Shown here piece after piece: positions 4,231 to 54,754 of a stretch of 64,000 nt of DNA (the stretch's first letter is position 1; each line of letters opens with the position of its first letter). The notes under the pieces are model-generated. The model saw only the letters and a list, made by a program, of their open reading frames with translations, ran no database searches and was not told where the DNA came from. Source of the stretch: Candidatus Chisholmbacteria bacterium RIFCSPHIGHO2_01_FULL_52_32 (GTDB lineage Bacteria > Patescibacteriota > Microgenomatia > UBA1400 > Chisholmbacteraceae); assembly GCA_001816585.1 (NCBI GenBank), contig MHCJ01000003.1:11013-75012 (forward strand). The letters are read 5' to 3'. Both the position numbers and the translations under genes were made by a program.

Positions 4231-4352
<122 letters not shown>

Positions 4353-4357
<5 letters not shown>

Positions 4358-5690
4358 CCTTCTGTGTTTTATACTTGTGTGCGTTTGATTGGAGAGTATT
4401 CGTTATCCAGGTTGTCGCCTGCTTCAGTCCTACGGAAGTTACCAGAATAAGGATGAGCAGGGTTGGAATGAGGTACCGTTCAAAACCTGGGAGCTTCACG
4501 CGGGCGTAGGCGATGTTGACGACAATCCAGAAGATGGAGAGGGAGAGCAGAGAATGGCTCTGTGGATCGTTTTTTGCTCTCCTTAAGAGGCTATACCATC
4601 CGAACAGGAGCAACAGTGTGAGGAGGCTTTGAACGATGCGATATTTTGAGATCGAGATAAATACTGTCAGGATGTAGAGCGGCATCTCGAGAAAGCTAAA
4701 CTGTCCGAACGCCCGATAGAAAAGTTCCTGCTGGAGGATTCGAGAGCCAAAGAGGGCTCCCGTGCCTCGGATGGGATCCGCCCAGATCTCCGGTTCCAAA
4801 AAGAAGAACGTGGCAAGGAAAGAAAGGGTATACCCCGCGCAGAAGAATAGGAATCTTTTCCATTGTTGTTTGGAAATTGTGCTTGGGTGGGTGAGACAAA
4901 GCAGGGAAAAGTATAACCAGGGGAAGAAGAGGAGGAAGACTCCGGGGAGTTTGATGCTCGTAGTACACGCAATGAGCATTCCCAGGACGAATGAGGAGAG
5001 AAAAATACGGCTGTTTGAAAGTCGGGGAAGCTGATGAAGTGTTGCGACAAGTGCAGTTCCACTGATGAGGAGGAAGAGGACAAAAAAGGCGTCGGCTGTG
5101 GCAATCCCAAAAGTATTCCTTATGAGCGGATGCCATGCGCTAAAGACAGCGATAGAAAAGCCGATTTTCCAGTCTCGGGTTATATTGGTAGCGATCCATG
5201 CGAGAAACAGGATGGCCAGCAAACCCGCCGCTACGGAGGCGTATCGGATGAGAAGGATCGCATCGGTCACCTCAGAACCGAGTATGATTGCGGCCTCCTC
5301 CAGCGTTTTCCCTGTCGGGAGTACGTCAGTGTGAACGATGGCGTAGAGCCGGGTGCTTGTTTCCTCATCGACCATTTTTCTCCCGGTGCTTTGCAAAAGG
5401 AAACCGATGAGGTATTTCCCGAATTGCGGCTGGTCGAGGAGGCGGCGCTTCTGTGTTTCCCACCGAAGATATTTGAAGTCTTTTGGCAGCGAAAACCGTT
5501 CCCAATTGTTGTTTCGGCGATGCGTATAGAATTGGGCATCCAAGATCCAGGGAACCTCGTCAATGGAGAGGGTTATTTTCGGGACTAGGGAAATCCACAA
5601 GCCGTAGATCCAATAAACCCCAAGCATAACCAAGGGAATTTGCCACAGAAGAGAGCGCCAATACCTCCTTTTTCGCATCGGCTTAATCAT
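4353..5690 (-). CDS. Polytopic integral membrane protein, possibly GT-C-type glycosyltransferase (PMT/ArnT-like)
   Basis: 445 aa with many predicted transmembrane helices. Weak resemblance to glycosyltransferase family 39/83 membrane enzymes; not a firm family call. Confidence 0.45.
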
Positions 5691-7167: not shown

Positions 7168-7277
7168 GGTAGGGAATTAGGGAAGGGAAGTCAAGAGAAA
7201 TAGCGTTTAGCGATAAGCGTCTAGCGTCTAGTTCCTCAACCCTCAACCCCCAACCCTCAACCCTCGACCCTCGACCC
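7168..7277. repeat. Heptamer repeat tract (TAGGGAA/TAGCGxx then CCTCAAC/CCTCGAC)
   Basis: gggtagggaattagggaagggaag ... agcgtttagcgataagcgtctagcgtctag ... cctcaac cctcaac ccccaac cctcaac cctcgac cctcgac. Confidence 0.75.
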
Positions 7278-7453
7278 TATTCCTTGTCTTTTCTGTACTT
7301 TGCAAACTGGCGCTCACGAGCCTGAAACTTGGCGCGGCAGATGAGGCAGAAACTCGGGGGTTTAAGACCCTTTTGGCGGTAAAAGTCCTGTTCGCCATCG
7401 GTCCAGATGAATTCGTTACCGCAGTTTTGGCAGATAAGGGTGAGGTCGGACAT
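7277..7453 (-). CDS. Small zinc-ribbon protein (58 aa); not in the ORF track because it is under 60 aa
   Basis: Reverse-complement translation gives MSDLTLICQNCGNEFIWTDGEQDFYRQKGLKPPSFCLICRAKFQAREQFAKYRKDKE*, with two CxxC pairs. ATG at 7453-7451, TAG at 7279-7277. This is more plausible than the overlapping 7243..7464 track ORF. Confidence 0.5.
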   Translation of the reverse strand: MSDLTLICQNCGNEFIWTDGEQDFYRQKGLKPPSFCLICRAKFQARERQFAKYRKDKE

Positions 7454-7531
7454 GGGTTAGGCAATAGGCACTAGGGTATAGGGTTTAGGGAAAAAGCAGT
7501 AATGGCTGATAGCGAATAGCCAGTAGCCAAT
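7454..7531. repeat. Heptamer repeat tract (TAGGCAA/TAGGGTT/TAGCGAA types)
   Basis: ggttagg caatagg cactagg gtatagg gtttagg ... gctgatagcgaatagccagtagccaa. Confidence 0.7.
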
Positions 7532-7533
7532 TG

Positions 7534-8897: not shown

Positions 8898-11513
8898 ATG
8901 GAGATATACGATCATCGAAAGATAGAACGTCGCTGGCAGAAGATGTGGAAAGAAGCGAGGATCTATCAGCCTGATCTTCGCAAGGCAAAGAAACCGTTCT
9001 ACAACCTGATGATGTTTCCGTATCTCTCGGCAGAAGGACTGCATGTCGGGAATATGTATGCCTTTACGGGGGCGGATATCTATGGGCGATTTAAGCGGAT
9101 GCAAGGCTATGATGTGTTCGAACCCATCGGGTTGGACGGGTTTGGGATCCACTCGGAAAATTATGCAATGAAGATCGGGAAGCATCCGGCGGAGCAGGCG
9201 AAGCTGTCTCAGAAGCGGTTCTACGCGCAACTCCATGACATCGGTAACAGTTTTTCTTGGGAGAATACCCTTGAGACTTTTGATCCTGTCTATTATCGGT
9301 GGACACAGTGGCTGTTTGTGCAGATGTTTAAACACGGACTCGCGGTGCGTAAAAAGGCGATGGTGAATTGGTGCCCTTCATGCAAGACCGTTTTGGCGGA
9401 TGAGCAGGTGGAGGGAGGGGTGTGTGAGCGGTGCGGGACACCCGTTGAGCGCCGAGAGATGGCGCAGTGGTTTTTCCGGATTACCGACTTTGCAGAGCGG
9501 TTACTTGGGAACCTTGAAACGCTCAATTGGCCGGAGAAGATCAAAATCGCACAGAGGAACTGGATTGGCAGGAGGGATGGCGCAGAGGTTGGATGGGTGG
9601 TCGATGGCACCAGAGAGGTTCTTTGGACCTTCACAACGCGTCTGGACACGATTTTTGGGGCGACGTTCCTTGTTATAGCTCCTGAGCATCCCACAGTAGC
9701 GGATCTGATGAGTTCAAAGTTTAAAGTGAAAAGTGAAAAGTTAGAAAATGTAAGAGTCTACGTCGAGGCGGCGCTCAAGAAAACGGAGCAGAAGCGGAAG
9801 ACGACAGAAAAAGAGAAGACGGGCGTTGATACCGGTTTGAGGGTGATCCATCCTCTGACCGGCGGGAAAATTCCAGTCTGGATTGCCGATTTTGTGTTGA
9901 TGGATGTGGGAACCGGTGTCGTCATGGGTGTGCCTGGACACGATCAGCGCGACGGGGACTTTGCCCGGAAGCACAATCTCCCGATTATCAAGGTCATCGA
10001 TGTTGGTGGGCGGGAGGTGCAGCAGGCAGCGGTTACGGAATTTGGCAGTTTGGTGACTTCCGGGGAATTTGACGGGCTTTCTTCTTTGGAGGCGATGGAG
10101 AGGATTCTTGAGCGTTTAGCGTCGCAAGGAACGGGAAAAAAGAAAGTTGCGTACCACCTCCGTGACTGGCTGATCTCAAGGCAGCGCTATTGGGGCCCGC
10201 CGATCCCGATGATTTTTTGTGAGCAATGTGCCAAGGAGGGAAGGGCCTTTAAAGGAGACTCCCTGAAAGGTACCCTGAAAGGTATGGCGGGGTGGTGGCC
10301 GGTTCCTGAAGGGGATTTACCGGTTGAACTTCCTTTTGTTTCAGACTACAAGCCGATTGGGGACGGAAGATCTCCTCTTGAGAGGGCGTCGGAATCCTGG
10401 CTCTACACCAAGTGCCCCAGGTGCGGGGGAAGGGCCAAAAGAGAGACGGATGTGTCGGATACCTTCCTGGACAGCTCGTGGTATTTTCTTGCCTACCCAA
10501 ATCTTGGAACGGAGGAGTGGACCCGAAAAAAAATTGCTAAATTGATCAATGGTCAAATTGCTCGTAACAATACAACAATGCAACCATTTAACAATACGGT
10601 AACCCGCCGGTGGTTGCCTGTCGATGCGTATATCGGTGGCGCGGAGCATGCGGTGTTACACCTTTTGTACAGCAGGTTCGTGACGATGGCGCTTCATGAC
10701 TGGGGTTACCTTTCCTTTGAAGAGCCTTTCCCGTTTTTGTTCAGCCACGGTTTGATCATCAAGGAAGGGGCGAAGATGAGCAAGAGCCGGGGGAATATCG
10801 TCACGCCCGATGATTATATTCGAAAGTTCGGTTCTGATACATTAAGATCTTATTTGATGTTTATAGGACCATATGATCAAGGAGGAGATTTTCGCGATAC
10901 GGGGACTCTAGGGATGTACCGCTTCCTGATGCGAGTCTGGCGACTCTATCAGGAAAGTTCGAAGTTGGGGGAGAAGACGGATCCGAACCTGGTCGGGCCG
11001 CTGCACCGTATGACCAAGCAGGTGACAGAGGATCTTGAAAAGTTCCGCTTCAATACGGCTCTGGCAAAATTGATGGAGTTTATCAATGCATGGGAGGACG
11101 GGAAAATGCTTTCTTGGGATGACGCAGGGATTTTCTTGAGACTATTGGCTCCGTTTGCGCCGCATATGAGCGAGGAATTGTGGCACAATTTGCCGAAAAA
11201 ACATACCTGCCTCGATTTGAATTGTATTCTTAAAGGGTTGCGGGGAAAGCCATTTTCTCTCTCGAGCATCCATGTGGCTCCTTGGCCGGCGTATGATGTA
11301 ACGCTGGCGGCATTTGGCGATCTCGAAATCGTGGTTGAGGTCAACGGAAGGGTGCGGGGGAAGATTTTGGTTGCGGCCGAGAAGGCGAACGATCGTTCGG
11401 AGACTATTCGTCTGGCTCAAAAGATACCAGGAGTGGCAGCTCATCTCTCGGGAAAACAGATAACAAAGACGATTTGGGTGGAGGGAAAACTGGTGAATTT
11501 CGTTGTCTCGTAG
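8898..11513 (+). CDS. leuS: Leucyl-tRNA synthetase
   Basis: HVGNMYAFTGADIYGRFKRMQGYDV (HIGH region), editing domain, KMSKS motif. SD aaggag lies upstream of the ATG at 8898. Contains an in-frame heptamer tract and a REP-like insert. Confidence 0.92.
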   Translation: MEIYDHRKIERRWQKMWKEARIYQPDLRKAKKPFYNLMMFPYLSAEGLHVGNMYAFTGADIYGRFKRMQGYDVFEPIGLDGFGIHSENYAMKIGKHPAEQAKLSQKRFYAQLHDIGNSFSWENTLETFDPVYYRWTQWLFVQMFKHGLAVRKKAMVNWCPSCKTVLADEQVEGGVCERCGTPVERREMAQWFFRITDFAERLLGNLETLNWPEKIKIAQRNWIGRRDGAEVGWVVDGTREVLWTFTTRLDTIFGATFLVIAPEHPTVADLMSSKFKVKSEKLENVRVYVEAALKKTEQKRKTTEKEKTGVDTGLRVIHPLTGGKIPVWIADFVLMDVGTGVVMGVPGHDQRDGDFARKHNLPIIKVIDVGGREVQQAAVTEFGSLVTSGEFDGLSSLEAMERILERLASQGTGKKKVAYHLRDWLISRQRYWGPPIPMIFCEQCAKEGRAFKGDSLKGTLKGMAGWWPVPEGDLPVELPFVSDYKPIGDGRSPLERASESWLYTKCPRCGGRAKRETDVSDTFLDSSWYFLAYPNLGTEEWTRKKIAKLINGQIARNNTTMQPFNNTVTRRWLPVDAYIGGAEHAVLHLLYSRFVTMALHDWGYLSFEEPFPFLFSHGLIIKEGAKMSKSRGNIVTPDDYIRKFGSDTLRSYLMFIGPYDQGGDFRDTGTLGMYRFLMRVWRLYQESSKLGEKTDPNLVGPLHRMTKQVTEDLEKFRFNTALAKLMEFINAWEDGKMLSWDDAGIFLRLLAPFAPHMSEELWHNLPKKHTCLDLNCILKGLRGKPFSLSSIHVAPWPAYDVTLAAFGDLEIVVEVNGRVRGKILVAAEKANDRSETIRLAQKIPGVAAHLSGKQITKTIWVEGKLVNFVVS

Positions 11514-14610: not shown

Positions 14611-16524
14611 ATGCTTGCAGAGGAGATCAAGGTTCAGGTTCAAAAGGCGCTCAAAGAGTTGGATTTTCCGGAGGTGCCGATTGTTATTGAGCATCCTAGT
14701 TCGGCAGAGCATGGGGACTATAGCTCGAATGTTGCGTTGCAACTTTTCGCTAAATCCGAAGCACGAAGCACGAAGCACGAAAAAACATCACAGCTCGCTA
14801 AGTATAAAACTCCTAGGGAAATCGCAAAGGCGATTGCTGACTATTTCGGATTTCGGATTTCGGATTTCGGATTTCTTCATAAAGTGGAGTTAGCGGGGCC
14901 GGGGTTTATCAATTTTTGGCTTTCCGAGCAGTTTTTGTCAGACACGCTTAAGCAGGCAATACATCTGGGAGACAGGTATGGGCAGAACGAAGCACTCAAA
15001 GGGAAAAAGATCATGGTGGAGTTTACCGATCCCAACCCGTTTAAAGAGTTTCACATTGGGCACCTGTACAGCAATGCGGTGGGGGAATCTTTGTCGCGAC
15101 TCTTGGATGCAAGTGGCGCCCAAGTAAAACGTGCGAACTACCAAGGAGATGTGGGGTTGCATGTCGCCAAGGCCCTTTATGGGCTCTTGGCGAAGTTAAA
15201 AGTTAAAAGTGAAAAGTTAAAAGTTAATGAGGAGAAGCTTAAGGAGCTTGAGAAGAAACAACTCGCAGAGCGGATCCGAATATTGGGTGAGGCGTATGCG
15301 GTGGGAGCTAAAGCCTATGAAGCGGATGAGAAAGCAAAAGCCCAGATCGAGGAGCTCAACCGAAAGATTTACGCACAGGAGCCGGATGTGATGGAGATAT
15401 ATGGGAAGGGCCGGGCCTGGAGTTTGGAGTACTTTGAGACGATTTACCGGCGGCTCGGAACCAAGTTTGATTTCTACTACTTCGAGTCGGAGGCGGGAAA
15501 AATCGGGCTTGAAGTGGTGAAGGGGGGCTTACGGAAAGGTGTTTTCGAAGAAAGCCAAGGGGCAATCGTTTTCTCCGGAGAAAAACACGGATTACATACG
15601 CGGGTCTTTGTCAACTCACAGGGTTTGCCAACCTATGAGGCAAAAGACTTGGGATTGGCGCCGACGAAATACAAGGATTTTCCCTATGACAAGTCCATCA
15701 TCATTACGGGTAATGAAGTTGATGCGTATTTCAGGGTGGTTTTGAAAGCACTGGCGCTTCTTTCCCCCGAGCTTGGGGAAAAGACGCAACATCTTTCCCA
15801 TGGGATGGTGCGGTTGCCAACAGGAAAGATGTCGAGCCGGACAGGTGAAGTGCTCACCGGCGAATGGCTCATCGATGAGGCGAAAAAGAGGATCTTGAGG
15901 ATAATGGAGCAGGGACCCTCCTTCGCAACTGCGACTTCGCGCAGACTGCCTGTTCGGCCGTTTCGCGAATCGGTTGCTTTGGAGGGTGATAAGCGCGATG
16001 GGGAAATTGTATCGCGCTTGTCAAAAGATGAGGTGGCGGAGATGGTTGGCATCGGGGCGGTCAAATATGCATTGCTTCGAGGGAGTATCGGACGGGATAT
16101 CATTTTTGACATTGATGAATCGGTGAACTTGGAAGGGAACAGCGGGCCGTACCTCCAATACACTTTTGCAAGATGCAAAAGTGTATTGGCAAAATCCGAA
16201 GCACGAAGCACGAAGCACGAAGCAGTTTCGAATTTCGATATTCGAGCTTCGAATTTGAATGCTGAGGATCTCAGCATTCTGCGTTGGTTGTATCGGTATC
16301 CGGAGGTGGTGGAGCAGGCAGTGAAGGGGTATGCACCATACTTGGTGTGTGCTTACCTCTATGGATTGGCGCAGCGATACAATGCCTTTTACAACAAACA
16401 CAGGATTGTTCAGACTAAGAAGGAAGAGGAGAGAAGGTTTCGTCTGATGATGACCAGTGCAATCGCCCAAATTCTTGAGAACGGACTTAAGCTCCTTGGT
16501 ATTGCAGCTCCGGAAACCATGTGA
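14611..16524 (+). CDS. argS: Arginyl-tRNA synthetase
   Basis: N-terminal Arg-tRNA-binding domain, HIGH-like FHIGHLYSNAVGESL, class I catalytic core, C-terminal DALR anticodon-binding domain. Four in-frame heptamer-repeat inserts. Confidence 0.92.
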   Translation: MLAEEIKVQVQKALKELDFPEVPIVIEHPSSAEHGDYSSNVALQLFAKSEARSTKHEKTSQLAKYKTPREIAKAIADYFGFRISDFGFLHKVELAGPGFINFWLSEQFLSDTLKQAIHLGDRYGQNEALKGKKIMVEFTDPNPFKEFHIGHLYSNAVGESLSRLLDASGAQVKRANYQGDVGLHVAKALYGLLAKLKVKSEKLKVNEEKLKELEKKQLAERIRILGEAYAVGAKAYEADEKAKAQIEELNRKIYAQEPDVMEIYGKGRAWSLEYFETIYRRLGTKFDFYYFESEAGKIGLEVVKGGLRKGVFEESQGAIVFSGEKHGLHTRVFVNSQGLPTYEAKDLGLAPTKYKDFPYDKSIIITGNEVDAYFRVVLKALALLSPELGEKTQHLSHGMVRLPTGKMSSRTGEVLTGEWLIDEAKKRILRIMEQGPSFATATSRRLPVRPFRESVALEGDKRDGEIVSRLSKDEVAEMVGIGAVKYALLRGSIGRDIIFDIDESVNLEGNSGPYLQYTFARCKSVLAKSEARSTKHEAVSNFDIRASNLNAEDLSILRWLYRYPEVVEQAVKGYAPYLVCAYLYGLAQRYNAFYNKHRIVQTKKEEERRFRLMMTSAIAQILENGLKLLGIAAPETM

Positions 16525-18451: not shown

Positions 18452-19777
18452 ATGGATGAACGGTACCGGAAATTCATTTTTCCTTCCGGTTTAACACTTC
18501 TGACGGTGCCGATGCCGGGGGTCGAGAGCGTGACCATTCTTGTGATGGTGCGGACCGGGAGCCGCGACGAACCTTCTGAGCTTTCGGGGATTTCCCATTT
18601 TCTCGAGCACATGGTCTTTAAGGGAACGGCGAAGTATCCTTCGGCCTTGGCGTTGACCTCGGCGATTGATTCAGTGGGAGGGGAATTCAATGCCTTTACA
18701 AGCAAGGAGTTCACCGGTTTTTACGTCAAGGTGGCAAGCGCCCATCTTGACAAAGGGATTGATGTTTTGTCTCAGATGCTCACAGCGCCGAAGCTTTTGG
18801 CGAGCGATATCGAGCGGGAGAAGGGGGTTGTGGTTGAGGAAATTAACCTTTATGAGGATTTACCAACGCACAAAGTTTCCGATGTGTTTGACCGGCTGAT
18901 GTACGGAGCCAATGGCTTGGGAAGAGAGACAGCGGGGAGCAAAGAAACAGTGAAGTCATTGTCGAGGGAAGACCTGCTCCGTTACCTTCGCGGGCGCTAC
19001 ACGGCGACGCGGACGGTGGTTGGTGTAGTCGGGGGGGTTGGTGGGATCGATGGAGAAAAGGAGATGCGAAGGATTCGGGAATCGGTCGGAAGAGCCTTTG
19101 CACCACTGGGCAAAGATCGTATATCTCGTTGGGGAAGTCCGGTTGAGCTGCCTCGTCGGTCTTCCGTTGCCCTCCATCCCAAGAAGACCAACCAGGCGCA
19201 TTTTATCTTGGGTGTTCCGGCGTTCCGGCGAGGGCATCGGGATCGGTTTGCCTTGGCGGTTTTGGCAACAATCCTTGGGGGAAACATGAGCTCGAGGCTG
19301 TTTTCGGAAGTCCGCGAGAAGCGAGGCCTGGCCTACTACGTCAAGTCCGATGTCGATATTTTCTTTGATACGGGAAGCATTTCGGTCCATACCGGGGTAG
19401 AGGTGGGTAAAATCGACGAGGCGATTCGGGTTACGCTTTTGCAACTTCGGCTTGCGGCAAACGGGAGCCGGGGACAAGGGATTTCTGCAACGGAAGTGGT
19501 TGCGGCAAAAGATTATCTCAAGGGCCAGTTTATTCTTGATCTTGAAGACAGCCATGAGGTGGCGGATCACTTTGTCCGTCGCTACCTTTTGGAGCAACGG
19601 ATTCTTACCCCAGGTGAGTTTTTGGCAATGATTGACCGGGTGCGACCCACGGATGTGGTACGGGTAGCTAAAACGCTTTTTAATGGGGATGGGCTGCGGT
19701 TGGCGGTGGTGGGACCGTACTCGGAAAAGGATAGACAGCGATGGGAGAGGATGATACAGTTAAAAGTGAAAAGTTAA
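18452..19777 (+). CDS. M16 family zinc peptidase (insulinase/pitrilysin-like)
   Basis: Inverted zinc motif HFLEH plus downstream E. Two-domain M16 architecture. The C-terminal tail ...QLKVKS is encoded by a GTGAAAA/GTTAAAA heptamer tract. Confidence 0.8.
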   Translation: MDERYRKFIFPSGLTLLTVPMPGVESVTILVMVRTGSRDEPSELSGISHFLEHMVFKGTAKYPSALALTSAIDSVGGEFNAFTSKEFTGFYVKVASAHLDKGIDVLSQMLTAPKLLASDIEREKGVVVEEINLYEDLPTHKVSDVFDRLMYGANGLGRETAGSKETVKSLSREDLLRYLRGRYTATRTVVGVVGGVGGIDGEKEMRRIRESVGRAFAPLGKDRISRWGSPVELPRRSSVALHPKKTNQAHFILGVPAFRRGHRDRFALAVLATILGGNMSSRLFSEVREKRGLAYYVKSDVDIFFDTGSISVHTGVEVGKIDEAIRVTLLQLRLAANGSRGQGISATEVVAAKDYLKGQFILDLEDSHEVADHFVRRYLLEQRILTPGEFLAMIDRVRPTDVVRVAKTLFNGDGLRLAVVGPYSEKDRQRWERMIQLKVKS

Positions 19778-19799
19778 AAGTGAAAAGTTGGGAGAAGGG

Positions 19800-20264: not shown

Positions 20265-20350
20265 AGATAGGCATTAGGCACTAGGCAATAGGGTAGAGGG
20301 TAAAGGGAGAAGTCTTCGGTTTTCAGTCTTCAGTTTTTTAAGCCGAGTGA
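20265..20350. repeat. Heptamer repeat tract (TAGGCAx/TAGGGTA then TTCAGTC types)
   Basis: agatagg cattagg cactagg caatagg gtagagg gtaaagg ... cttcggt tttcagt cttcagt ttt. Confidence 0.75.
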
Positions 20351-20431
20351 GACAGACCTTTAAAGGAGGCTCCCTGCAAGGTAAGGCCTATACTTGAGTT
20401 TCCAAGAGGAAGTAGTATACTTCCTGGAATT

Positions 20432-20930: not shown

Positions 20931-20965
20931 ATTTAAAGACCTTGAAAGGTCTGACCTTTCAAGGT
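20931..20965. repeat. REP palindrome doublet (ACCTTGAAAGGTCTGACCTTTCAAGGT)
   Basis: Perfect inverted 12-mers ACCTTGAAAGGT / ACCTTTCAAGGT. The same element recurs at about 21447-21475, 21660-21695, 29668-29703, 39463-39493 and 51815-51852. A variant CCTTTAAAGGAGNCTCCCTGCAAGG occurs at 10252-10285, 20355-20385, 36690-36720 and 51146-51180. Confidence 0.8.
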
Positions 20966-21651
20966 CGGTCGATGGTGAGACCTGGAAGGAATGGGTCCGG
21001 CGTTTCATCCTTGGTTTCCACGAACGATTCGTAGGAGGTAAAGTCGATACTCCCGATTCTTCTTCTCGATTTGAAAAAGGCGAGGATTTCTTTCGGCTGA
21101 ATCCATGCGGTCGTTCGCAGCCCAAGATACTCCGCGTAACTTGAGTAGGGATAGTCTTTGAGCGGTTTTTCCCAAAATTTCATTGGATTTTTGTGGATGT
21201 AGCGACTGAGGTGGAGGAACTGCTCGTTGGTTTCCACAAGTACGGCTTTATACACACTCTCAAATAATGATCCTAATCTTCCGTGTGTCTTGTTGAAGTG
21301 AACAGCATACCGAGTTGCTAGGGACTGCATGAATTGTTTCATCATATTTTTTGTCTGTTGCATTACCAGGAGATGGAAGTGATTTGGCATCAGGCAGTAC
21401 GCGAGCAGCTTGAGTTTCCCGGAACAATTCTTGGGTTGATGCGGTATACCTTGAAAGGTCGAACCTTTCAAGGTGAAGGATTGGACGAGGGCTTGTGGGT
21501 TTGGCGGGGGTGAGAGCGCTGTTTTTAGGATATTTAGGAAGACCTGATAATCTTTTTTGCCGACAAAAATAGATCGTTTCTCAACACCCCGATTGTAAAT
21601 ATGGTAGTACCCACCTTCGACATTGATCTTGCGGGTGTGCTTTCGAGGCAT
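20959..21651 (-). CDS. IS200/IS605-family Y1 (HUH) transposase homolog; REP-associated tyrosine transposase (RAYT)
   Basis: MPRKHTRKINVEGGYYHIYNRG ... LLAYCLMPNHFHLLVMQ (HuH motif) ... catalytic Tyr region. REP copies lie immediately upstream (21660-21695), inside the gene (21447-21475) and downstream (20931-20965). Confidence 0.8.
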   Translation of the reverse strand: MPRKHTRKINVEGGYYHIYNRGVEKRSIFVGKKDYQVFLNILKTALSPPPNPQALVQSFTLKGSTFQGIPHQPKNCSGKLKLLAYCLMPNHFHLLVMQQTKNMMKQFMQSLATRYAVHFNKTHGRLGSLFESVYKAVLVETNEQFLHLSRYIHKNPMKFWEKPLKDYPYSSYAEYLGLRTTAWIQPKEILAFFKSRRRIGSIDFTSYESFVETKDETPDPFLPGLTIDRP

Positions 21652-21699
21652 AATATTTATCCTACCTTGAAAGGTCTGACCTTTCAAGGTTGGTGTTTG

Positions 21700-23874
21700 T
21701 TACGCTTCTTTTATTGTTCTTGAGTATCTTTCGCGGGAGACGCGCAGGACTTTTTCCCGGTTTTGGTTCTTGGAGCGGGGTAAAGGCAGGGTAATGGCAG
21801 GGAAGGGAGCGGAGGTGGCGTTATCGATCGAGAGTTTGATGACGATTTGGTACTTACCGAGGCTCACCAGCTCTTCCTGGGTGTAAACCCCGCCAAATTC
21901 CTTCATCAGGTGCTCGGCGTCTTCGGCACCGACGAGGAAGCCTACCAAGGTTCCTGCATTGCCGAAGATTGCCTTTTCGAGCTCCTCGTTAAGCTGGGCG
22001 ATGTATTGGTTGGCAAGGATGAGGTCCAGGCGGTATTTGCGTGCTTCGGAGAGGATTTTAATGAAGCTCGTTGTCGCAAAGTTCTGGAACTCGTCCACGT
22101 AGAGGTAGAAGTCGCGGCGCTGTGCCTCCGGGATGTTTATCCGGTTCATCGCGGCAAGCTGCATCTTGGTGATGAACATGGCGCCAAGTAGGGCGGCATT
22201 GTCTTCGCCGAGTTTCCCTTGGGCGAGGTTGACGATCAAGATCTTTCCGCTGTTCATGAGTTCCTCTAGGTTCAACGAAGAATGCGGATGGCTGATGATT
22301 TCTCTGATGGTCGGGCTGGTGACGAATTGGCCGACTTTGTTGAGGATGGGCGAGATGGCTTCCGAGCGAAGCTTGGGGTTCATCTGCGCGTACTCCTTGG
22401 TCCAGAACGTTTTGAGGGCATCTTCAGGGAGCCGGTCCACGATTGACTGGCGGAAGCTGTCATCGGTGAGGATCCGTGGCACGTCGACTAGGGTTGAACC
22501 GGGCCGCTGGACTAAGGTGAGGATCGAGTTTCGCAGGATATACTCAAGGCGCGGCCCCCAGGAGTAGTAGTAGAGCTTATAGAAGATGGCAACGATCCCG
22601 GAGGCGACCAGCTCGGCGTGGGCGGGATCGTCGACCTCCAAGGGATTCATCCGGATGACGTGCTTTGTGTCTGAGGGATCAAAGTAGACGACGTCGTTTA
22701 ACCGTTTTGCGGGAATATAGTCAAGCAGTATGTCACAGAGGTCGCCGTGGGGGTCGATGATGGCCAGGCCCTCGTCGTTTCGCATGTCGGCGATTGCGAG
22801 GTTTGCAATCAGGGTTGATTTTCCGGTACCGGTTTTTCCGATGATGTAAATGTGCTTTCTTCGGTCAAGCCGCTTGATGCCGAAGATTTGCATGCGGTTT
22901 TTAAACTCGGTGCGGGCGATGAAGTTGATCTCCCGCTTTTCCTCGTCGGTAAGGTCAATGGCAATCGGTAAGTTCTCCGGCGGTTCGCCGAGGAGGTTTG
23001 AGCCCCAAGCGATGTTGCGGATTTTGGCGAGGGTTAGGTTGGGAAGGTGATATAGTGTGGCTAGTTCTGATATATTCAGATAGTGTTTTGCCGGTGTATT
23101 TGCAAATGTACGGGTGGTGATTGACCTTAGAAATTCCCGTCTGAAAAGGGTGGGGGTTTTGAGCCGGAGGCTGTTTCCCTCGCCGATGGTGAAACTGCCA
23201 TACGAGCCGGCGATGTGCTTCAGGAGCTCTTGGGAGCGGGTTTTGCTGTCGGAATCAGTTACGAGCTTGATGCCTACCCGGAAACCAACCTCCGAGATTT
23301 TTCTTTCAATCAGCTCTTTTTGGGGATGGGCCTTGGTTTCTCCGGGTTGGCCGCCGACGGCTGGCACTCCTTTTTCAACGGCGCTTGCTCCTTTTGATTG
23401 CCAATTTCCAGAGGCAGGAGCCACCAAATACTGGACAAGCATCAGGTCATCGGGCTGGGCTTTTGCCATGGTTCCGAGGATGGCTGCCAACGGATCCACG
23501 TCCGTGAATTCTTTATAGGTTTTGAGGGGAAAATACGATGCTTGCGAGAGTGTGAGCAGGCCGACTGAGGGATTTTTCCACTCGTTCGGAGGCGGTAGGT
23601 ATTCTTTTACGGGGGTGATGATGATTTTCGGAAAGGAAGCGGAGAGTTGGGATTCGAGGTAACCTTGGACGTCCTTCGGGGCAACGACATAAAAGTGGGT
23701 GACTTGATTGATGGTGGCGATTTCGAGTGAGATGGGCTCCGGAATACCGAGGAGCTGTTTTAGAAAGGGCGTACGAAGGTGGGGAAGGGCGGCGAGGAAT
23801 TGGGCGGCGGCTTCGGGGGTTTCTTCGCTGTCGCGGGGAGTACGCAGTTCAAGGATGACGCGATCGGCAGTCAT
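21700..23874 (-). CDS. TraD/VirD4/TrwB-like coupling-protein-type P-loop ATPase with an unknown ~350-aa N-terminal region
   Basis: Walker A IIGKTGTGKST, IDPHGD, Walker B-like FYLYVDEFQNF, C-terminal LILANQYIAQL, consistent with the TrwB_AAD_bind / FtsK-HerA superfamily. The start could be as far upstream as 23976. Confidence 0.6.
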   Translation of the reverse strand: MTADRVILELRTPRDSEETPEAAAQFLAALPHLRTPFLKQLLGIPEPISLEIATINQVTHFYVVAPKDVQGYLESQLSASFPKIIITPVKEYLPPPNEWKNPSVGLLTLSQASYFPLKTYKEFTDVDPLAAILGTMAKAQPDDLMLVQYLVAPASGNWQSKGASAVEKGVPAVGGQPGETKAHPQKELIERKISEVGFRVGIKLVTDSDSKTRSQELLKHIAGSYGSFTIGEGNSLRLKTPTLFRREFLRSITTRTFANTPAKHYLNISELATLYHLPNLTLAKIRNIAWGSNLLGEPPENLPIAIDLTDEEKREINFIARTEFKNRMQIFGIKRLDRRKHIYIIGKTGTGKSTLIANLAIADMRNDEGLAIIDPHGDLCDILLDYIPAKRLNDVVYFDPSDTKHVIRMNPLEVDDPAHAELVASGIVAIFYKLYYYSWGPRLEYILRNSILTLVQRPGSTLVDVPRILTDDSFRQSIVDRLPEDALKTFWTKEYAQMNPKLRSEAISPILNKVGQFVTSPTIREIISHPHSSLNLEELMNSGKILIVNLAQGKLGEDNAALLGAMFITKMQLAAMNRINIPEAQRRDFYLYVDEFQNFATTSFIKILSEARKYRLDLILANQYIAQLNEELEKAIFGNAGTLVGFLVGAEDAEHLMKEFGGVYTQEELVSLGKYQIVIKLSIDNATSAPFPAITLPLPRSKNQNREKVLRVSRERYSRTIKEA

Positions 23875-23884
23875 GAGGAAATCA

Positions 23885-24100
23885 TAGCATATTCGCCCCT
23901 TTCTTTGCTTGTCCAAAGAAAGGGGCGAAAGAAAGGACACCCCAGTGAACGATCTCTCGGGAACTCGTTCGCTCATCCTTCGTCATCAAACTCCTCGGGA
24001 TAAACCCTTCGTCGAACAGTCGATGACATTTCAGCGGTATTCGCTCACTTCGTTCTCGAGTAGCTCCGTTCAAAGGGGGGGAGCATTTTATGCTTGAAGA
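23885..24100. repeat. Approximately 200-bp repeat element, copy A (second copy at 60925-61140)
   Basis: Shared blocks with copy B: CTTGTCCAAAGARRGGGG, CCCCAGTGARCGWTCTYTCGRGA, CTCGARTAGCTCCGYTCAAAGGGG. Contains the hairpin CCCCTTTCTTTG-cttgtc-CAAAGAAAGGGG. Confidence 0.5.
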
Positions 24101-29580: not shown

Positions 29581-29735
29581 CGTTTTGATTCTGGCAAGAA
29601 GTGTTGTGGCTGTCAAGCATATCCGGATGAATCTTCGAGCGGAATCCTGAAAAGAAGCAGGATTACCAACCTTGAAAGGTCAAACCTTGCAAGGTTGGGT
29701 GGACAGAGGGTTTGGATGGTCTGTACAATGAAGCT

Positions 29736-30392: not shown

Positions 30393-30396
30393 CCCA

Positions 30397-30480
30397 GGGT
30401 ATAGGTTTTAGGGTATAGGGTCTAGGGTTTAGGATAGGGACCTCAGTTTTCAGCCTTCAGTCTTCAGTTTTCAGTTTGTA
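30397..30480. repeat. Heptamer repeat tract (TAGGGTx then TTCAGTC types)
   Basis: gtatagg ttttagg gtatagg gtctagg gtttagg ... tcagttt tcagcct tcagtct tcagttt tcagttt. Confidence 0.75.
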
Positions 30481-31916: not shown

Positions 31917-32608
31917 AGATTGGTTTTAAGCGATCGGATTTGGACGAAGGGTTCCAGGCTAAACTCCGACTCCGGATGGGTAGGGTCGGCATTGACGCGA
32001 ACGGAAACTTTCACGAGCGTTACCGCATTGAGGGGGGCCGGTGTAGACAGCGGATTGGTGGTGGTTTCCACCGGCCAATCTTGGTTGTAGTAGGAGAAGA
32101 CGGGCGATGCTCCGTTTCTGATGTCCTCGGCAACGGTTTTTACCTGTTCGTTCTCCGAGGGATAGGAGACGGGAAAGCCGGTCGGTTGGACCGTTCCCTT
32201 CTTTAGCTCCGTTCCGTCAAGGTAATAGCGGACGTGCTCGATTTGCGGATCCGAGTCGACGTTGGCATAAAAAATAATTTCCTGCGCATCGGCCTTTTCA
32301 AGCGGAAAGGAGCCTGCCTCGGATGGGCGACTGCTTCGAAGCTCGTCGGTGAGCGTTCGCAGGGAAGCATTGGCGTTCTCAATCGTAAAGATCGTCCGGA
32401 GGGAAAAATTCTCGCTCGTTCCTAAGGATGACTGGAGGGCAACCACCGTGCCAAGGAGAGCGACGAAAATCGACATACCGATAAGAATTTCGATCATGGT
32501 AAACCCGGCTCGCCCTTGGCGAGAGTTAAAAGTTAAAAGTGCAAAGTTAAAAGTTGAAGATCGGGTTATACTGTCTTGGAGTTTTGTACTCAATTTTGAA
32601 TTTTTCAT
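31913..32608 (-). CDS. Type IV prepilin-like protein (canonical N-methylation motif)
   Basis: ...QGRAG|FTMIEILIGMSIFVALLG (G-F-T-x-I-E consensus). Best start is ATG at 32608 (MKNSKLSTKLQDSITRSSTFNFALLTFNSR...), not the track's 32863. The leader contains a GTTAAAA heptamer tract. Confidence 0.65.
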   Translation of the reverse strand: MKNSKLSTKLQDSITRSSTFNFALLTFNSRQGRAGFTMIEILIGMSIFVALLGTVVALQSSLGTSENFSLRTIFTIENANASLRTLTDELRSSRPSEAGSFPLEKADAQEIIFYANVDSDPQIEHVRYYLDGTELKKGTVQPTGFPVSYPSENEQVKTVAEDIRNGASPVFSYYNQDWPVETTTNPLSTPAPLNAVTLVKVSVRVNADPTHPESEFSLEPFVQIRSLKTNL

Positions 32609-32627
32609 TTTGACTTTTGTACTTAAT

Positions 32628-33965: not shown

Positions 33966-34078
33966 TGCTGTTTTCAGTATAGCAAATGGCCGATGGCTGA
34001 TGGCAAATGGCTGATGGCTAATGGCAGATAGCAGAGACCTAAACCCTAACCCTAAACCCTAGACCCTAGACCCTTCTT
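33966..34078. repeat. Heptamer repeat tract (ATGGCTG/ATGGCAA then CCTAAAC/CCTAGAC types)
   Basis: aatggcc gatggct gatggca aatggct gatggct aatggca gatagca ... cctaaac cctaacc ctaaacc ctagacc ctagacc. Confidence 0.75.
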
Positions 34079-35384: not shown

Positions 35385-36695
35385 ATGGAGACACTTTTGA
35401 CCGAGAGTTTGTGGGGGGATGAGAGCTTTTCTGCGATGGCGGTGAAGCTGCCGTTTGGGGAAACGATGGGGGTGGTGATGCGGGACACCGCGCCGCCTTT
35501 ATTCTATTTTGTCGGTTGGATCTGGGGAAGGGTGTTTGGTTTTTCTGAAGTGGCGCTGAGGAGCTCGTCTCTGCTTCTCATGATAGGAGCTGCCGTCTTT
35601 GCCTACGCAATCGTCAAACGGATTGGGAAGGACAGGTTTGCGGCAATCGGAGCGGGTTTCCTCTCACTGTTGAGTCCATTTCTCGTTCCGTTTGCTTTTG
35701 AGTTTCGAATGTACGCGCTGTTTGCCTTTCTGGTCGTCGGATCGGTGTACTTTTTTATCGCGAGGAAATGGCGAAGCTATGTCGTGTTTACGGTGGCTGC
35801 GCTTTACAGCCACCATTACGCATTGTTTACCGTTTTCGGGCAGTTTGTCTGGTTTTTGGTGACGGAGTTTCATTGGAAAAGTTGGCGGACCTTCCCTCGA
35901 CAGCTCTGGCCGTTCGTTTTGATCGGCGCGCTTTACATCCCTTGGCTTTATCCGTTTTACCTGCAGATTGCCCGGGTGAAGGGAGCGGGTTTTTGGCTTC
36001 AGGCGCCCGGAGTGTGGGAAATCTTAGGGACCTTGGGTCGTTTTGCAACGGGGGGGGTTCCCGCCGGCTTTGTGTTGCCGACGGCTTTTTTGGTGGGAGG
36101 GCTTCTTCTTGGTAAAGATTGGAAGCGGATCGGCAAACGGTGGCTCGAGCTGTTTGTGATTTTCCTGATGCCGGTTGCGGTAGCGGTTGGGATTTCCCAT
36201 GTTCTGACGCCAATTTTCTACGACCGTTACCTGTTGTCGGTGGCGATCGGGACGGTTATCTTAACCACTCTGGGTATCCGGGGACGGTTTCGGGCGGGTC
36301 TCTTTATGCTTCTGGTTCTGTATGGCTATGTCAGTTTTACGCTCTTTACGCATCCGACGAAGCGACCGTTCCGGGAATTGGCGGCGTACGTTCATTCGGA
36401 ACAACTCGAGGGTGATTTCTTCATTAATTACAACGGGCGGGCCCATCATTTATGGGAATCGAAGTATTACGGGATTTCCGCACCGATCTACACTCCTGCC
36501 GGACCGCTGCCTTTATATGTCGGCACCGCCCAAATGACAGCGGAGGATACCGTGGCGAAATTGCCGGAACAGGCTTTGCGACTTGGGGTCATCACCAGCG
36601 ACCCGGCAGAGACAATTGTTTTGCCCGGAGGCTTCAGGCGCGCCGGTATAAAGGAGTTTGGGGAGTTGAAGGTAGTGTGGTTCTCACACCTTTAA
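35385..36695 (+). CDS. Polytopic membrane protein, GT-C-like glycosyltransferase candidate (ArnT/PMT-like)
   Basis: 12 or more predicted TM helices and a first-loop WGDE acidic motif, typical of the GT-C fold. The family call is tentative. Confidence 0.45.
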   Translation: METLLTESLWGDESFSAMAVKLPFGETMGVVMRDTAPPLFYFVGWIWGRVFGFSEVALRSSSLLLMIGAAVFAYAIVKRIGKDRFAAIGAGFLSLLSPFLVPFAFEFRMYALFAFLVVGSVYFFIARKWRSYVVFTVAALYSHHYALFTVFGQFVWFLVTEFHWKSWRTFPRQLWPFVLIGALYIPWLYPFYLQIARVKGAGFWLQAPGVWEILGTLGRFATGGVPAGFVLPTAFLVGGLLLGKDWKRIGKRWLELFVIFLMPVAVAVGISHVLTPIFYDRYLLSVAIGTVILTTLGIRGRFRAGLFMLLVLYGYVSFTLFTHPTKRPFRELAAYVHSEQLEGDFFINYNGRAHHLWESKYYGISAPIYTPAGPLPLYVGTAQMTAEDTVAKLPEQALRLGVITSDPAETIVLPGGFRRAGIKEFGELKVVWFSHL

Positions 36696-36719
36696 AGGAG
36701 ACTCCCTGCAAGGTTGGTG

Positions 36720-39188: not shown

Positions 39189-39328
39189 GAGTAGGGTATA
39201 GGGCTTAGGATTTAGCTTATTGGCTTGTAGCTTCTTAGTTTAATTAGCCTCTAAGCACCTCGTTTTTCCTGACTACTGAATACTGAATACCCTGCCTGCA
39301 ATTTGCAGACTCCTGCTATCATAGCCTC

Positions 39329-40477
39329 ATGAATGTTGGCATTGACGCCTCAAGGGCATTTGTTTCAGAGCGAACCGGGACGGAGAAATACTCCTTAAAG
39401 CTTCTTGAGGCGTTGGGGAAGGTAGACGATAGGAATCGGTATATCATGTATACTCGTACCTTGAAAGGTCTGACCTTGCAAGGTGGGTCTGGTGGGCGGT
39501 TTGCTGTGCGGGAGATCGGGTGGCCGAGGCTGTGGACCCAAGGAGGCCTGGCCGCCCGCACGTGGGTTGACCGCTTAGATGTTCTTTTTATTCCGGCGCA
39601 CACCCTGCCGGTTCTGCGGCGGCCACGGCTTAAGACGGTCGTCACTATTCATGGGCTCGAGTATGAATATCTGCCGCAGTATTACCAGTTTCCCCAAAAA
39701 GTGTACCTCACGTGGTCCACACGCTATGCCGTGCGGTCTGCTACGCGACTGATTGCGGTTTCCCGCTTCACCGCTTCGGAGCTGGTTTCTCGGATGGGAG
39801 CTGATTCTTCAAAAATCCGTGTGATTCATGAAGGTGTTGATGCACTAGGTTATAGTAAATCATATAGCGATAATGTAAAGCATAGTGTTTTGGAGGGCTT
39901 TGGCGTTCGGAAACCCTACGTTCTGTTTGTCGGAGTGGTTCAGCCGAGGAAGAACCTTGTGCGGCTGGTTGAGGCGTTTTCGCTTACTGTGAACAGACTT
40001 TTGGGAGAAAGAAAGGGGTTTCCGGATCTTACCTTGGTCATTGCCGGAAAGCTTGGGTGGATGGTTGAGGAGACACTAAAGGCCCCGCAAAAGTTCGGGG
40101 TGGCGGATCGGGTGAAGTTTTTGGGCTTTGTGGAGGATAAGCATTTACCTTTTCTTATGCAGGAAGCGGAGCTTTTAGTGCAACCAAGCCTCACCGAGGG
40201 CTTTGGGTTACCGGTTTTAGAGGCAATGGCCGCCGGCACGCCGGTTGTGGCTGCTCGGGCGGGGGCATTGCCTGAGGTCTGCGGGGATGCAGCAATTCTC
40301 GTCGATCCTGTTGACGTTGTTAATATTGCAGATGGTCTGTTTCAAGGGCTGACTCACAAGGAGATGAGAAGAAGGCTGACGAAACTGGGTCTCGAGAGGG
40401 TGAAACAGTTTACTTGGGAAAAGGCGGCACAAAAGACACTTGAAGTGTTGGAAGAAGCGGTGGGGGAATCGAGGTAA
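39329..40477 (+). CDS. Glycosyltransferase family 1 (GT4-type, GT-B fold)
   Basis: The C-terminal EGFGLPVLEAMAAGTPVVA is the signature E-x7-E region of retaining GT4 enzymes. An in-frame REP palindrome at 39463-39493 encodes TLKGLTLQGG. Confidence 0.8.
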   Translation: MNVGIDASRAFVSERTGTEKYSLKLLEALGKVDDRNRYIMYTRTLKGLTLQGGSGGRFAVREIGWPRLWTQGGLAARTWVDRLDVLFIPAHTLPVLRRPRLKTVVTIHGLEYEYLPQYYQFPQKVYLTWSTRYAVRSATRLIAVSRFTASELVSRMGADSSKIRVIHEGVDALGYSKSYSDNVKHSVLEGFGVRKPYVLFVGVVQPRKNLVRLVEAFSLTVNRLLGERKGFPDLTLVIAGKLGWMVEETLKAPQKFGVADRVKFLGFVEDKHLPFLMQEAELLVQPSLTEGFGLPVLEAMAAGTPVVAARAGALPEVCGDAAILVDPVDVVNIADGLFQGLTHKEMRRRLTKLGLERVKQFTWEKAAQKTLEVLEEAVGESR

Positions 40478-40600
40478 TAGGCATTAGGGTATAGGGTTTA
40501 GGCTAAGGCAGAAAGATTCATGATTTACGATTGATGAATCATGAACTGCTGAAAACTGAATACTGAATACTGAATTCTGAATTCATAATACTGTCCTGAA
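40478..40600. repeat. Heptamer repeat tract (TAGGGTA/TAGGCTA and CTGAATA types)
   Basis: taggcat tagggta tagggtt taggcta agg ... ctgaaaa ctgaata ctgaata ctgaatt ctgaatt. Confidence 0.7.
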
Positions 40601-45908: not shown

Positions 45909-46030
45909 AGATAGGGGATAGGGTTTAGGGTTTAGGGTTTAGCATTCATTTTCAATCATCAGTCTTCAGTTCTCAGTCATCAGCCATTAGCTATTGGCCA
46001 TCTACTATCTGCCATACGCCATTTGCACTC
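45909..46030. repeat. Heptamer repeat tract (TAGGGTT x3 then CAGTCTT/CAGCCAT/CTGCCAT types)
   Basis: gatagggtttagggtttagggtttagc ... cagtctt cagttct cagtcat cagccat tagctat tggccat ctactat ctgccat acgccat ttgcact. Confidence 0.8.
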
Positions 46031-47615: not shown

Positions 47616-47714
47616 AACATAGGGTATAGGGTTTAGGGTATAGGGTTTAAGTGGCATGTGACGTTTTCGTTTTCACTTTTGACTTTTGAGATTTGACTTT
47701 TGCGTATATTACCC

Positions 47715-51145: not shown

Positions 51146-51180
51146 AGATTACCTTTAAGGGAGTCTCCTTTAAAGGTGGG
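51146..51180. repeat. REP variant with a shared GGTGGGTTAGCCGC tail (left copy flanking gene 51181..51810)
   Basis: cctttaagggagtctcctttaaaggtgggttagccgc. The same tail follows the REP at 51815-51858. Confidence 0.7.
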
Positions 51181-51814: not shown

Positions 51815-51858
51815 GAGTTATCGACCTTGAAAGGTTCGACCTTACAAGGTGGGTTAGC
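51815..51858. repeat. REP palindrome with the GGTGGGTTAGCCGC tail (right copy)
   Basis: gaccttgaaaggttcgaccttacaaggtgggttagccgcggg. Confidence 0.7.
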
Positions 51859-51998
51859 CGCGGGCGCGGGTGATGGCCGCCCCGCACAACTCCTGCCTGA
51901 TCTACGGCGTACCGCCTGTACTCTAAGGCACGTCGTATGCGGGGCAGGCTCGAGAATTTGTCAGATCTTGCCATCGCGAATCCTGCGCGGTAATCGGA

Positions 51999-53768: not shown

Positions 53769-53817
53769 CGATCAGCGTGATTGTATCATAGAGGATTTTT
53801 CGGAGTCCATGAGGAGG

Positions 53818-53859
53818 TTTCTTGATTTTGGTTGGGAAAATTGTAGAATTGCGGGCAAG
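53818..53859 (+). promoter_or_regulatory. Conserved promoter/5' region, copy 1 (TTGATT-17-TAGAAT then TGCGGGCAAG ATG)
   Basis: cttgattttggttgggaaaattgtagaattgcgggcaagATG. Near-identical blocks precede the ATGs at 54755 and 55953. Confidence 0.5.
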
Positions 53860-54636: not shown

Positions 54637-54699
54637 GTGCGGGTTATGGGTCCCAAGGTGACCACGGTTCAGGAGCGGATAAGGGATGATGAAGATTGT

Positions 54700-54754
54700 C
54701 TAAAGATAGAGGTTTGTTGATTTTAGTGCAGAAAATTGTAGAATTGCGGGCAAA
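54700..54754 (+). promoter_or_regulatory. Conserved promoter/5' region, copy 2
   Basis: ttgattttagtgcagaaaattgtagaattgcgggcaaaATG, preceded by the conserved ggataagggatgatgaagattgtctaaagatag. Confidence 0.5.

Follow-up and report, generated by a model that had tools for sequence, protein, structure and literature searches.

The DNA analysed here is a stretch of 64,000 nt (the window) from contig MHCJ01000003.1 of Candidatus Chisholmbacteria bacterium RIFCSPHIGHO2_01_FULL_52_32, a bacterium of the Candidate Phyla Radiation (CPR; assembly GCA_001816585.1, contig positions 11,013 to 75,012, forward strand). It holds the gene of a Y1/HUH transposase resembling the transposases associated with repetitive extragenic palindromes (REPs), the REP-associated tyrosine transposases (RAYTs). 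The gene is bracketed by two same-strand copies of a 27-nt palindrome, and like palindromes are scattered over the window, mostly between genes. Taken together, gene and palindromes very likely constitute a REP-RAYT ('REPtron'-like) system of this CPR bacterium. The following features make up the locus:

20959..21651, minus strand: RAYT-like Y1/HUH transposase coding sequence (CDS), an intact open reading frame (ORF) of 230 aa
21664..21690: upstream REP, family A, ACCTTGAAAGGTCTGACCTTTCAAGGT; hairpin of -11.4 kcal/mol, at a position that is occupied in 14 other RAYT loci
21448..21474: internal REP within the RAYT CDS, family A, encoding T-L-K-G-S-T-F-Q-G (residues 60-68)
20939..20965: downstream REP, family A, supplying the RAYT stop codon and lying between convergent gene ends

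All three copies have the form ACCTTGAAAGGT-N3-ACCTTTCAAGGT. The sequence-only reading from which this analysis started had proposed a Y1 HUH transposase at 20959..21651 that is flanked by the palindrome and also contains it, and the ORF, a Pfam match and the three located copies bear this out. The gene starts with the ATG at 21649-21651, and the upstream REP ends 12 nt before it, abutting Shine-Dalgarno-like bases (AGGA). Its stop codon is a TGA at 20959-20961, inside the downstream REP (CCTTGAAAGG).

The protein matches Pfam Y1_Tnp (PF01797) with 40.2 bits (E = 4e-10, cut-off 23), the alignment covering only its C-terminal two-thirds. The HUH motif, H91-F-H93, lies within LMPNHFHLL, and Y151, N155 and P156 lie within SRYIHKNP. 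H91, H93, Y151, N155 and P156 are invariant across 68 aligned homologues, so that the check on HUH and catalytic Tyr residues, on which the earlier identification had been made to depend, came out in its favour. An AlphaFold2 model was confident (pLDDT 87.7, pTM 0.84). Its best Foldseek match in the PDB was 4ER8_A (E = 4.9e-7, TM 0.66 on the target), the E. coli TnpA-REP with a bound REP hairpin, followed by the TnpA proteins of ISDra2, IS608 and IS200. Moreover, phmmer aligned the Tyr segment YIxxNP...PYSSY with 4ER8. The protein is predicted to fold and to work like a RAYT but falls outside the classical family as curated, being a member of a large clade of RAYT-like Y1/HUH transposases that had not been characterised before. 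More than 7,800 homologues are found in the databases at E <= 1e-5, those named or traced here come from CPR bacteria, and nearly all of the closest 120 are 218-246 aa long. In public records the protein is labelled 'hypothetical protein' or 'Transposase IS200-like domain-containing protein'.

The palindromes were counted by scanning the whole window for pairs of CCTTNNAAGG half-sites at a distance of 15 nt, a relaxed dyad pattern. Exactly 10 elements were found, compared with none in 300 first-order Markov simulations, in agreement with the earlier estimate of about ten copies. Single half-sites are enriched as well (25 observed, 5.4 +/- 2.5 expected), as are matches to the exact 12-mer with up to two mismatches (35 against 5.7 expected). 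Six elements belong to family A (20939, 21448, 21664, 29669, 39458 and 51824) and four to family B, ACCTTTAAAGGAGNCTCCCTGCAAGGT (10245, 20356, 36688 and 51151). Three lie in ORFs, namely those of the RAYT, leuS (8898-11513) and a GT4 glycosyltransferase (39329-40477). The other seven are intergenic, though ORFs cover 85% of the window (binomial p = 1.4e-4). Outside the RAYT locus, the elements are:

10245..10283: REP, family B, in-frame in leuS (8898-11513, plus strand), encoding AFKGDSLKGTLKG
20356..20382: REP, family B, intergenic, between ndk and the next gene, just after heptamer arrays
29669..29695: dispersed REP, family A, intergenic, with the palindrome extended to CCAACC...GGTTGG
36688..36714: solo REP, family B, between convergent genes, supplying the TAA stop of ORF 35385-36695
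39458..39484: REP, family A, in-frame in the GT4 gene (39329-40477, plus strand), encoding TLKGLTLQG
51151..51177: REP, family B-like (ACCTTTAAGGGAGTCTCCTTTAAAGGT), intergenic, 3 nt from the stop of gene 51181-51810
51824..51850: dispersed REP, family A, intergenic, between tandem minus-strand genes

Some of these elements provide the ends of genes. The TAA at 36693-36695 lies within CCTTTAAAGG, just as the TGA of the RAYT gene lies within its downstream REP. Since both stop codons are situated in REPs, REP insertion appears to have reshaped the C-termini of 35385-36695 and 20959-21651. An identical stretch of 11 nt, GGGTTAGCCGC, comes after the REP at 51151 (51178-51188) and after the one at 51824 (51851-51861). 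At 51181 these bases hold the stop and the last codons of the minus-strand gene, and no long ORF ends at 51854. This suggests a co-duplicated gene end or a pseudogene fragment.

Seven palindromes in the 64 kb have no linked transposase gene, compared with one RAYT gene, and no second copy or remnant of it was detected in the window by tblastn. Seven of the 10 copies have the bases ACCN directly 5' of the element when read on the minus strand, and one of the 10 when read on the plus strand. Both RAYT-flanking copies have this flank and the internal copy is without it. It may stand in for the tetranucleotide tag of classical REPs. GC skew is positive on the plus strand throughout the window. The one-strand orientation, in only 10 copies, would fit the strand-specific, replication-coupled chemistry of IS200/IS605 elements and offers a lead in that direction. 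When the 27-mer was sought in a collection of species-representative genomes, which does not include the source genome, the single match lay in an unrelated gammaproteobacterial metagenome-assembled genome.

Palindromes in such positions might also be regulatory hairpins of the host, such as terminators, mRNA stabilisers or sites for host proteins, with the transposase nearby by coincidence. Most copies are indeed found either close behind a stop codon or where two genes converge, every half-site (CCTTNNAAGG) forms a dyad in its own right, in the manner of operators, and the copy at 21664 was called terminator-like by a consensus scan. It was the only copy so called, however, promoter-like matches stayed at chance level, most copies lack a T-run, and Rfam has no family match at any of them. 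Copies also occur within genes, where they are read in several frames; over 15 loci, the type of palindrome and its spacer change together with the transposase gene to which they are linked, and an exact 27-nt copy is shared by a RAYT flank and a gene interior (see below). An origin as host signals is therefore highly improbable. A regulatory side-role of the kind known for E. coli REPs is possible.

The internal palindrome of the RAYT gene had been taken for a tolerated insertion, which does not hold: 104 of the 120 closest homologues carry F-T-[LF]-[KQ]-G-x-[TSP]-F-[KQ]-G-[IV]-P at residues ~59-70, and the copy co-varies with those flanking the gene. The alternatives L/F and K/Q of the motif exactly reflect the variable pair of bases at the centre of the DNA half-site CCTT-NN-AAGG. 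The AlphaFold2 model shows the nine residues as a beta-hairpin with strands at 57-61 and 64-68, an insertion that separates helix alpha-1 from the strands bearing the HUH motif; because of it, the profile models miss the N-terminus of the protein.

Nine loci were fetched by means of the protein alone and are thus free of bias from the DNA pattern (the window, L052, L053, L054, L057, L058, L059, L063 and L064). In eight of them, upstream, internal and downstream copies of one palindrome are present. A set of 15 loci, which also includes those found by the DNA pattern, spans 31-51% GC and 49-100% protein identity. All 15 have an upstream copy (partly cut by the contig start in L009) and all 15 an internal one (an alternative palindrome in L052 and L059). 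A downstream copy is found in 12, being absent from L010 and L045 and unreadable in L051, where the contig ends inside the gene. The 5-nt spacer varies between loci; within a locus it is common to the internal and the flanking copies, sometimes in inverted form. On average, the spacers of internal and flanking copies are a distance of 0.375 apart when both come from one locus and 3.02 when they come from different loci, a result that none of 20,000 permutations reached. Dispersed copies in L057 and L058 bear the locus-specific spacer too.

Changes of the stem point the same way. In L064, TTG>ATG and CAA>CAT occur on both stem arms of all three copies, and the peptide becomes TMKGYSFHG. L052 and L059 have at all three positions, in place of the CCTT-type palindrome, an unrelated one, GACAGGGGTNACCCCTGTC, of the form GACAGGGGT-N-ACCCCTGTC, and the peptide there reads TGVTPVRP. 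Where loci are AT-rich, TTGTAA/TTACAA occurs in the flanking copies; inside the gene this would create an in-frame stop, and the internal copy has the nearest sense alternatives, CAA/AAA. Over 12 internal copies, 90.3% of the stem positions pair, three pairs being changed on both sides. Spacer, compensatory changes, palindrome swap and these coding limits argue that the nucleic-acid sequence, and not the peptide, is what is kept. The internal palindrome is a conserved feature of the RAYT clade and, from these comparisons, appears to be constrained as DNA. The E. coli rayT gene, taken as a control, has REPs on both sides and none within its CDS. A further idea, that the internal REP is a recombination joint of N- and C-terminal modules, was rejected: identities over residues 6-57 and 70-200 are not discordant beyond sampling noise (2,278 homologue pairs, SD 0.059).

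Several points weigh against a REP-RAYT system with a DNA-constrained internal copy. The protein scores 45.2 bits with the NCBIfam equivalog REP_Tyr_transpos (NF047646), below the curated cut-off of 80, and the alignment is limited to profile positions 45-146. Neither a GTAG nor a CGTC tag was seen at the elements, GTAG occurring in the flanks of 0 of 65. All 10 window elements are single 27-nt dyads, with no doublets (REPINs) or bacterial interspersed mosaic elements (BIMEs) among them. The DNA hairpins of family A reach -7.7 to -11.4 kcal/mol, those of family B only a weak -2 to -7 kcal/mol. Binding, cleavage and mobilisation by the RAYT we infer from homology alone. As for the internal copy, L063 has kept both flanking REPs and an open gene with a half-decayed internal palindrome, so that the internal hairpin is not strictly indispensable. 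The test of codon choice (ACC for Thr, GGT for Gly) gave modest support, as these codons are common outside the motif (20 of 43 and 12 of 34), and co-variation was used as evidence instead. Passive gene conversion with copies ~200-500 nt away could also explain the match between internal copy and flanks without any function of its own. The earlier identification as a RAYT with cognate REPs is accordingly upheld by the enzyme and by the cognate flanking and dispersed palindromes, and finds no support in tag or NCBIfam score.

The open gene of L063 and the commonness of these codons also speak for another explanation, in which the internal 'REP' is merely a conserved protein motif with no role as nucleic acid, resembling the flanks through passive gene conversion, or else the flanking REPs were born as fragments of the gene. 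The motif, in the longer form F-T-[LF]-[KQ]-G-x-[TS]-F-[KQ]-G-[IV]-P-R-Q-P-K, is found in those same 104 homologues, its conservation runs past the palindrome (GIPRQPKN), and the beta-hairpin is modelled with confidence. Nevertheless, the peptide is wholly replaced where the flanking palindrome is of another type, the L>M and Q>H changes exactly preserve both base pairing and the match to the flanks, and the spacer residue tracks the flank spacer. This wholesale swap, the pairing-preserving changes and the tracking of the spacer indicate that the specific peptide is not the conserved thing. Moreover, the classical RAYT fold works without this hairpin. A pure protein motif is thus considered unlikely.

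The three in-ORF copies of the window are translated as FTLKGSTFQGIP, TLKGLTLQGGSG and FKGDSLKGTLKG. These translations were correctly given at the outset, with coordinates a few bases off (the copies outside the RAYT gene lie at 10245-10283 and 39458-39484). In leuS, a perfect 12-nt tandem duplication (CCCTGAAAGGTA x2, 10261-10283) adds the four residues TLKG. The element stands directly after the first CxxC of the leucyl-tRNA synthetase (LeuRS), where the Microgenomates have a hypervariable loop. The insert is missing altogether from some orthologues (C-GWQxVPE; P0125, P0127 and P0128), measures ~15 residues in many and reaches up to ~200 in some (P0160). The closest orthologue, P0122 (71% identity), bears an unrelated insert. 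A REP-like peptide occurs in P0123, P0124 and P0126, the last with two copies, and is absent from P0122, P0125, P0127 and P0128. At the DNA level, P0126 (L056, GC 40%) has two full 27-nt dyads. The locus of the closest leuS relative (L060, 71% identity) contains no such palindromes and stops short of the region of the RAYT site. In Microgenomates, the loop following this CxxC zinc knuckle is a hot spot of insertion (0 to ~200 residues), and in P0160 it holds a whole extra domain, with PF06821 among the Pfam matches.

The GT4 element lies in a variable loop ahead of the conserved motif WPRLWTQ. Orthologues of 57-72% identity with a REP-like peptide are P0242-P0246, P0251, P0254 and P0256, with two copies in P0251 and P0254; P0247, P0273 and others are without it. 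Because orthologue alignments show loops lacking them, the leuS and GT4 copies are insertions relative to many orthologues. Thus, the proposal that in-gene copies are insertions stands for these two genes, and fails for the RAYT copy as a clade-conserved feature. The window GT4 copy is of family A and 26/27 identical to the RAYT-flanking copies, and the orthologous copy in L054 is family-B-like. By sequence, both the leuS and the GT4 site would be old REP sites with sequence turnover.

A second REP in the L054 glycosyltransferase gene is 27/27 identical to the REP beside the L054 RAYT. The two copies share no flank, and their identity stops exactly at the 27-nt borders. This pair is the clearest evidence of recent copying and fixes the copied unit at a single 27-mer. 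Since a copied unit of 27 nt equals nine codons, its insertion never shifts the reading frame. In-gene copies add or replace a short peptide, in variable surface loops in the case of leuS and GT4.

The sequence-only reading had further proposed that in-gene copies are always read in one specific frame. This is so for the three copies of the window but is no general rule. Real genes of related CPR contigs contain the element in three frames: TLKGxTLQG in FolD and a DNA-alkylation repair protein, xPCKxxPFKV in a PMT_2 glycosyltransferase and an M20 peptidase, and HLxRxxLSRx in a SpeE-like methyltransferase (two orthologues) and a PCMT. Finding three of three in the same frame is weak evidence, expected about once in four by chance, because the palindrome gives the same peptides on either strand and one frame contains TGA. 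The PCMT (L048), the SpeE-like methyltransferases (L015 and L043) and FolD (L049) show no lengthening relative to what we take to be the consensus of their families. In these cases the REP seems to replace a native segment of like length and character, e.g., a helix before a glycine-rich turn.

Family B had been regarded as a variant of the same palindrome. It does exist, and proved to be more than a variant, as it matches the internal motif of another RAYT lineage and marks a RAYT site. Its reverse complement encodes TLQGVSFKG, which the homologue P0009 has as its internal motif, and the flanking copies at the P0009 locus (L053) match it. Furthermore, in a related genome (L054) a REP-flanked RAYT (P0005) lies between gene X and a PEGA-domain gene, and this REP-RAYT-REP site is the site of the solo family B REP at 36688-36714 of the window. 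The window aligns with the left flank of the L054 left junction and with the right flank of the right junction. From these two observations, family B is best read as belonging to a second RAYT lineage, whose gene would have been lost from the 36688 site or would lie elsewhere in the genome. Family B REPs would then be the relics of this lineage, which the window lacks, or its substrates.

The L054 site is also what one would expect if REP-tnpA-REP were an autonomous insertion sequence (IS) of the IS200/IS605 type that moves as a whole, with the dispersed palindromes as solo ends left by deletion between the flanks. A hairpin-gene-hairpin order on one strand is the architecture of such elements, and the structural matches include the TnpA proteins of ISDra2 and IS608. 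The position of the RAYT gene varies between related genomes, including presence or absence at one REP site, and its neighbourhoods differ from genome to genome. In addition, many RAYT-bearing metagenomic contigs are merely 1-2 kb long, as expected of assembly breaks at repeats. Yet a single gene copy stands against seven gene-less palindromes in 64 kb, and each assembly has the exact protein at one place. In-frame copies in the essential leuS gene, and in those of GT4, FolD and PCMT, cannot be the scars of a 0.75-kb, gene-interrupting IS, and the 27-nt copy in the L054 glycosyltransferase gene, identical to the RAYT flank, has no adjoining IS sequence. We regard transposition of the whole unit as quite improbable.

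A REP-RAYT system remains the preferred reading, and it can be compared with three known ones. REP-RAYT systems have been described from Enterobacteria and Pseudomonas (Nunvar 2010, PMC2817692; Bertels and Rainey 2011, PMC3116915; Corneloup 2021, PMC8266576). They share with the present one a Y1/HUH enzyme with HUH motif and Tyr, which has 4ER8 as its best structure match, a gene bracketed by short palindromes that are dispersed mainly between genes, co-evolution of enzyme type and palindrome type, and apparently one gene copy. Besides the missing GTAG tag and the score below the equivalog cut-off, the system differs in ~65 residues more than 4ER8, in 27-nt singlets instead of REPIN doublets or BIMEs, in a third palindrome inside the CDS, which E. 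coli rayT lacks, in frequent in-frame copies in genes, and in its host, a member of the CPR (Microgenomates) with a genome of about 1 Mb.

With IS200/IS605 elements (IS608, ISDra2, IS200), it shares the fold of a Y1 TnpA, hairpins located subterminally on a single strand at either end of the gene, and the expectation of a single-strand, strand-specific chemistry. In IS200, the upstream hairpin abuts the ribosome-binding site, as does the upstream REP here. In contrast to these elements, both end hairpins are the same palindrome, gene-less hairpins outnumber the gene with no evidence of multiple gene copies, and a further hairpin lies in the CDS.

The tolerance of copies in genes recalls the Rickettsia palindromic elements (RPEs), reportedly treated by Ogata and co-workers in 2000. 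RPEs are interspersed repeats of both intergenic and protein-coding regions (PMC1779305). In both systems, palindromic repeats are tolerated in-frame in coding genes, including essential ones, as extra surface peptides. However, RPEs measure 100-150 bp and have no known dedicated transposase, whereas the present unit has 27 nt (nine codons) and a cognate Y1 enzyme whose gene itself hosts a copy.

The system is set apart from the known ones by the internal hairpin, the nine-codon singlet, the lack of a GTAG tag, the CPR host and the divergence from the curated RAYT family. None of these features turned up in the literature searched, which covered REPs and Y1 transposases in CPR/Patescibacteria and the texts of Nunvar 2010, Bertels 2017 and Quentin 2018; neither a RAYT gene with a REP inside it nor any REP of a CPR bacterium is described there, an absence that is no proof of novelty.

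By analogy with the IS200/IS605 TnpA proteins and E. coli TnpA-REP (PMC8266576), the enzyme would bind the palindrome as a single-stranded DNA hairpin and would then cleave and rejoin beside it. The 27-mers could thereby spread strand-specifically, preferentially at or beside resident REPs. The internal hairpin would be a cis-acting binding site of the enzyme on its own gene or transcript and, lacking the ACCN flank, might speculatively be bound and left uncut. Its function we likewise only infer; the preferred role would be autoregulation and/or that of a protected master copy of the substrate, keeping enzyme and substrate co-evolving. A bolder version makes the internal hairpin an obligatory cis element: its own substrate written in the enzyme gene, a beta-hairpin of the protein, and an autoregulatory site and/or a master copy renewing the REPs, with a 27-nt element that is coding-compatible by design. 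We hold this version to be rather doubtful, if possible.

Several other features were observed in the window. The gene directly upstream of the RAYT (21700-23976, minus, i.e., on the same strand) ends 10 nt from the REP. Its product (758 aa, 724 aa as called) is, according to Pfam, a DUF87 / TraG-TrwB-like ATPase of the type IV coupling-protein kind. As the neighbours of the RAYT vary among genomes, a functional link is not implied. A sigma-70-like match of chance-level quality lies at 21659-21687 on the minus strand (TTGAAA, 17 nt, TAGGAT), with the upstream REP as its -35 box. Contigs bearing RAYT genes in metagenomes (L022, L053, L059, L063, L064 and others) are very often just 0.9-2 kb long and begin or end at palindromes, which suggests that REP repeats break the assemblies of CPR genomes.

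Many intergenic spacers consist of short tandem heptamer arrays (TAGGGTA/TAGGGTT, TAGCAAA/TGGCAAA, AGTTAAA/AGTGAAA, CCCTCAA, TTTTCAG), which often begin right behind a stop codon. They are found at 697-775, 4234-4376, 7226-7300, 7458-7532, 9711-9747, 15194-15244, 19758-19794, 20268-20341, 30395-30475, 32524-32619, 33977-34074, 39192-39215, 40471-40580, 45912-46026, 47613-47702 and 62702-62743. In the spacer between ndk and the next gene, two arrays are followed by the family B REP. These arrays are probably the heptamer phenomenon to which the sequence-only reading had alluded. Furthermore, repeats of 48-50 nt occur in two or three copies (53814-53863, 54709-54758 and 55907-55956; 54656-54703 and 55855-55902). 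These repeats mark the ends of three neighbouring ORFs on the plus strand (53809-54636, 54755-55888 and 55953-56681) and the stretches shortly before their starts; the ORFs look like a tandem array of paralogues with conserved 5' regions. A ribosomal protein L10 leader was found with Rfam at 62742-62851 on the minus strand (46.9 bits, gathering score 44).

Among domesticated transposases of bacteria, those of REP-RAYT systems are the best known. How REPs disseminate and why the REP/RAYT pair persists are still open questions (PMC8266576). The clade described here amounts to a natural experiment, in which the substrate hairpin is written in the enzyme gene and shifts in step with flanking and dispersed copies, up to a full swap of the palindrome. 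Enzyme-substrate co-evolution can thereby be read straight from the sequence, and a regulatory or templating role of the internal copy is suggested. In very compact genomes, a nine-codon palindrome can live in essential genes, e.g., those of LeuRS and FolD. This matters for how protein loops evolve, for annotating CPR genomes and for assembling metagenomes, whose contigs seem to break at these repeats. If the bolder version were true, enzyme specificity and substrate sequence would be locked together in a self-referential replicator, and a nine-codon element with open frames on both strands could colonise the surface loops of essential proteins in gene-dense CPR genomes.

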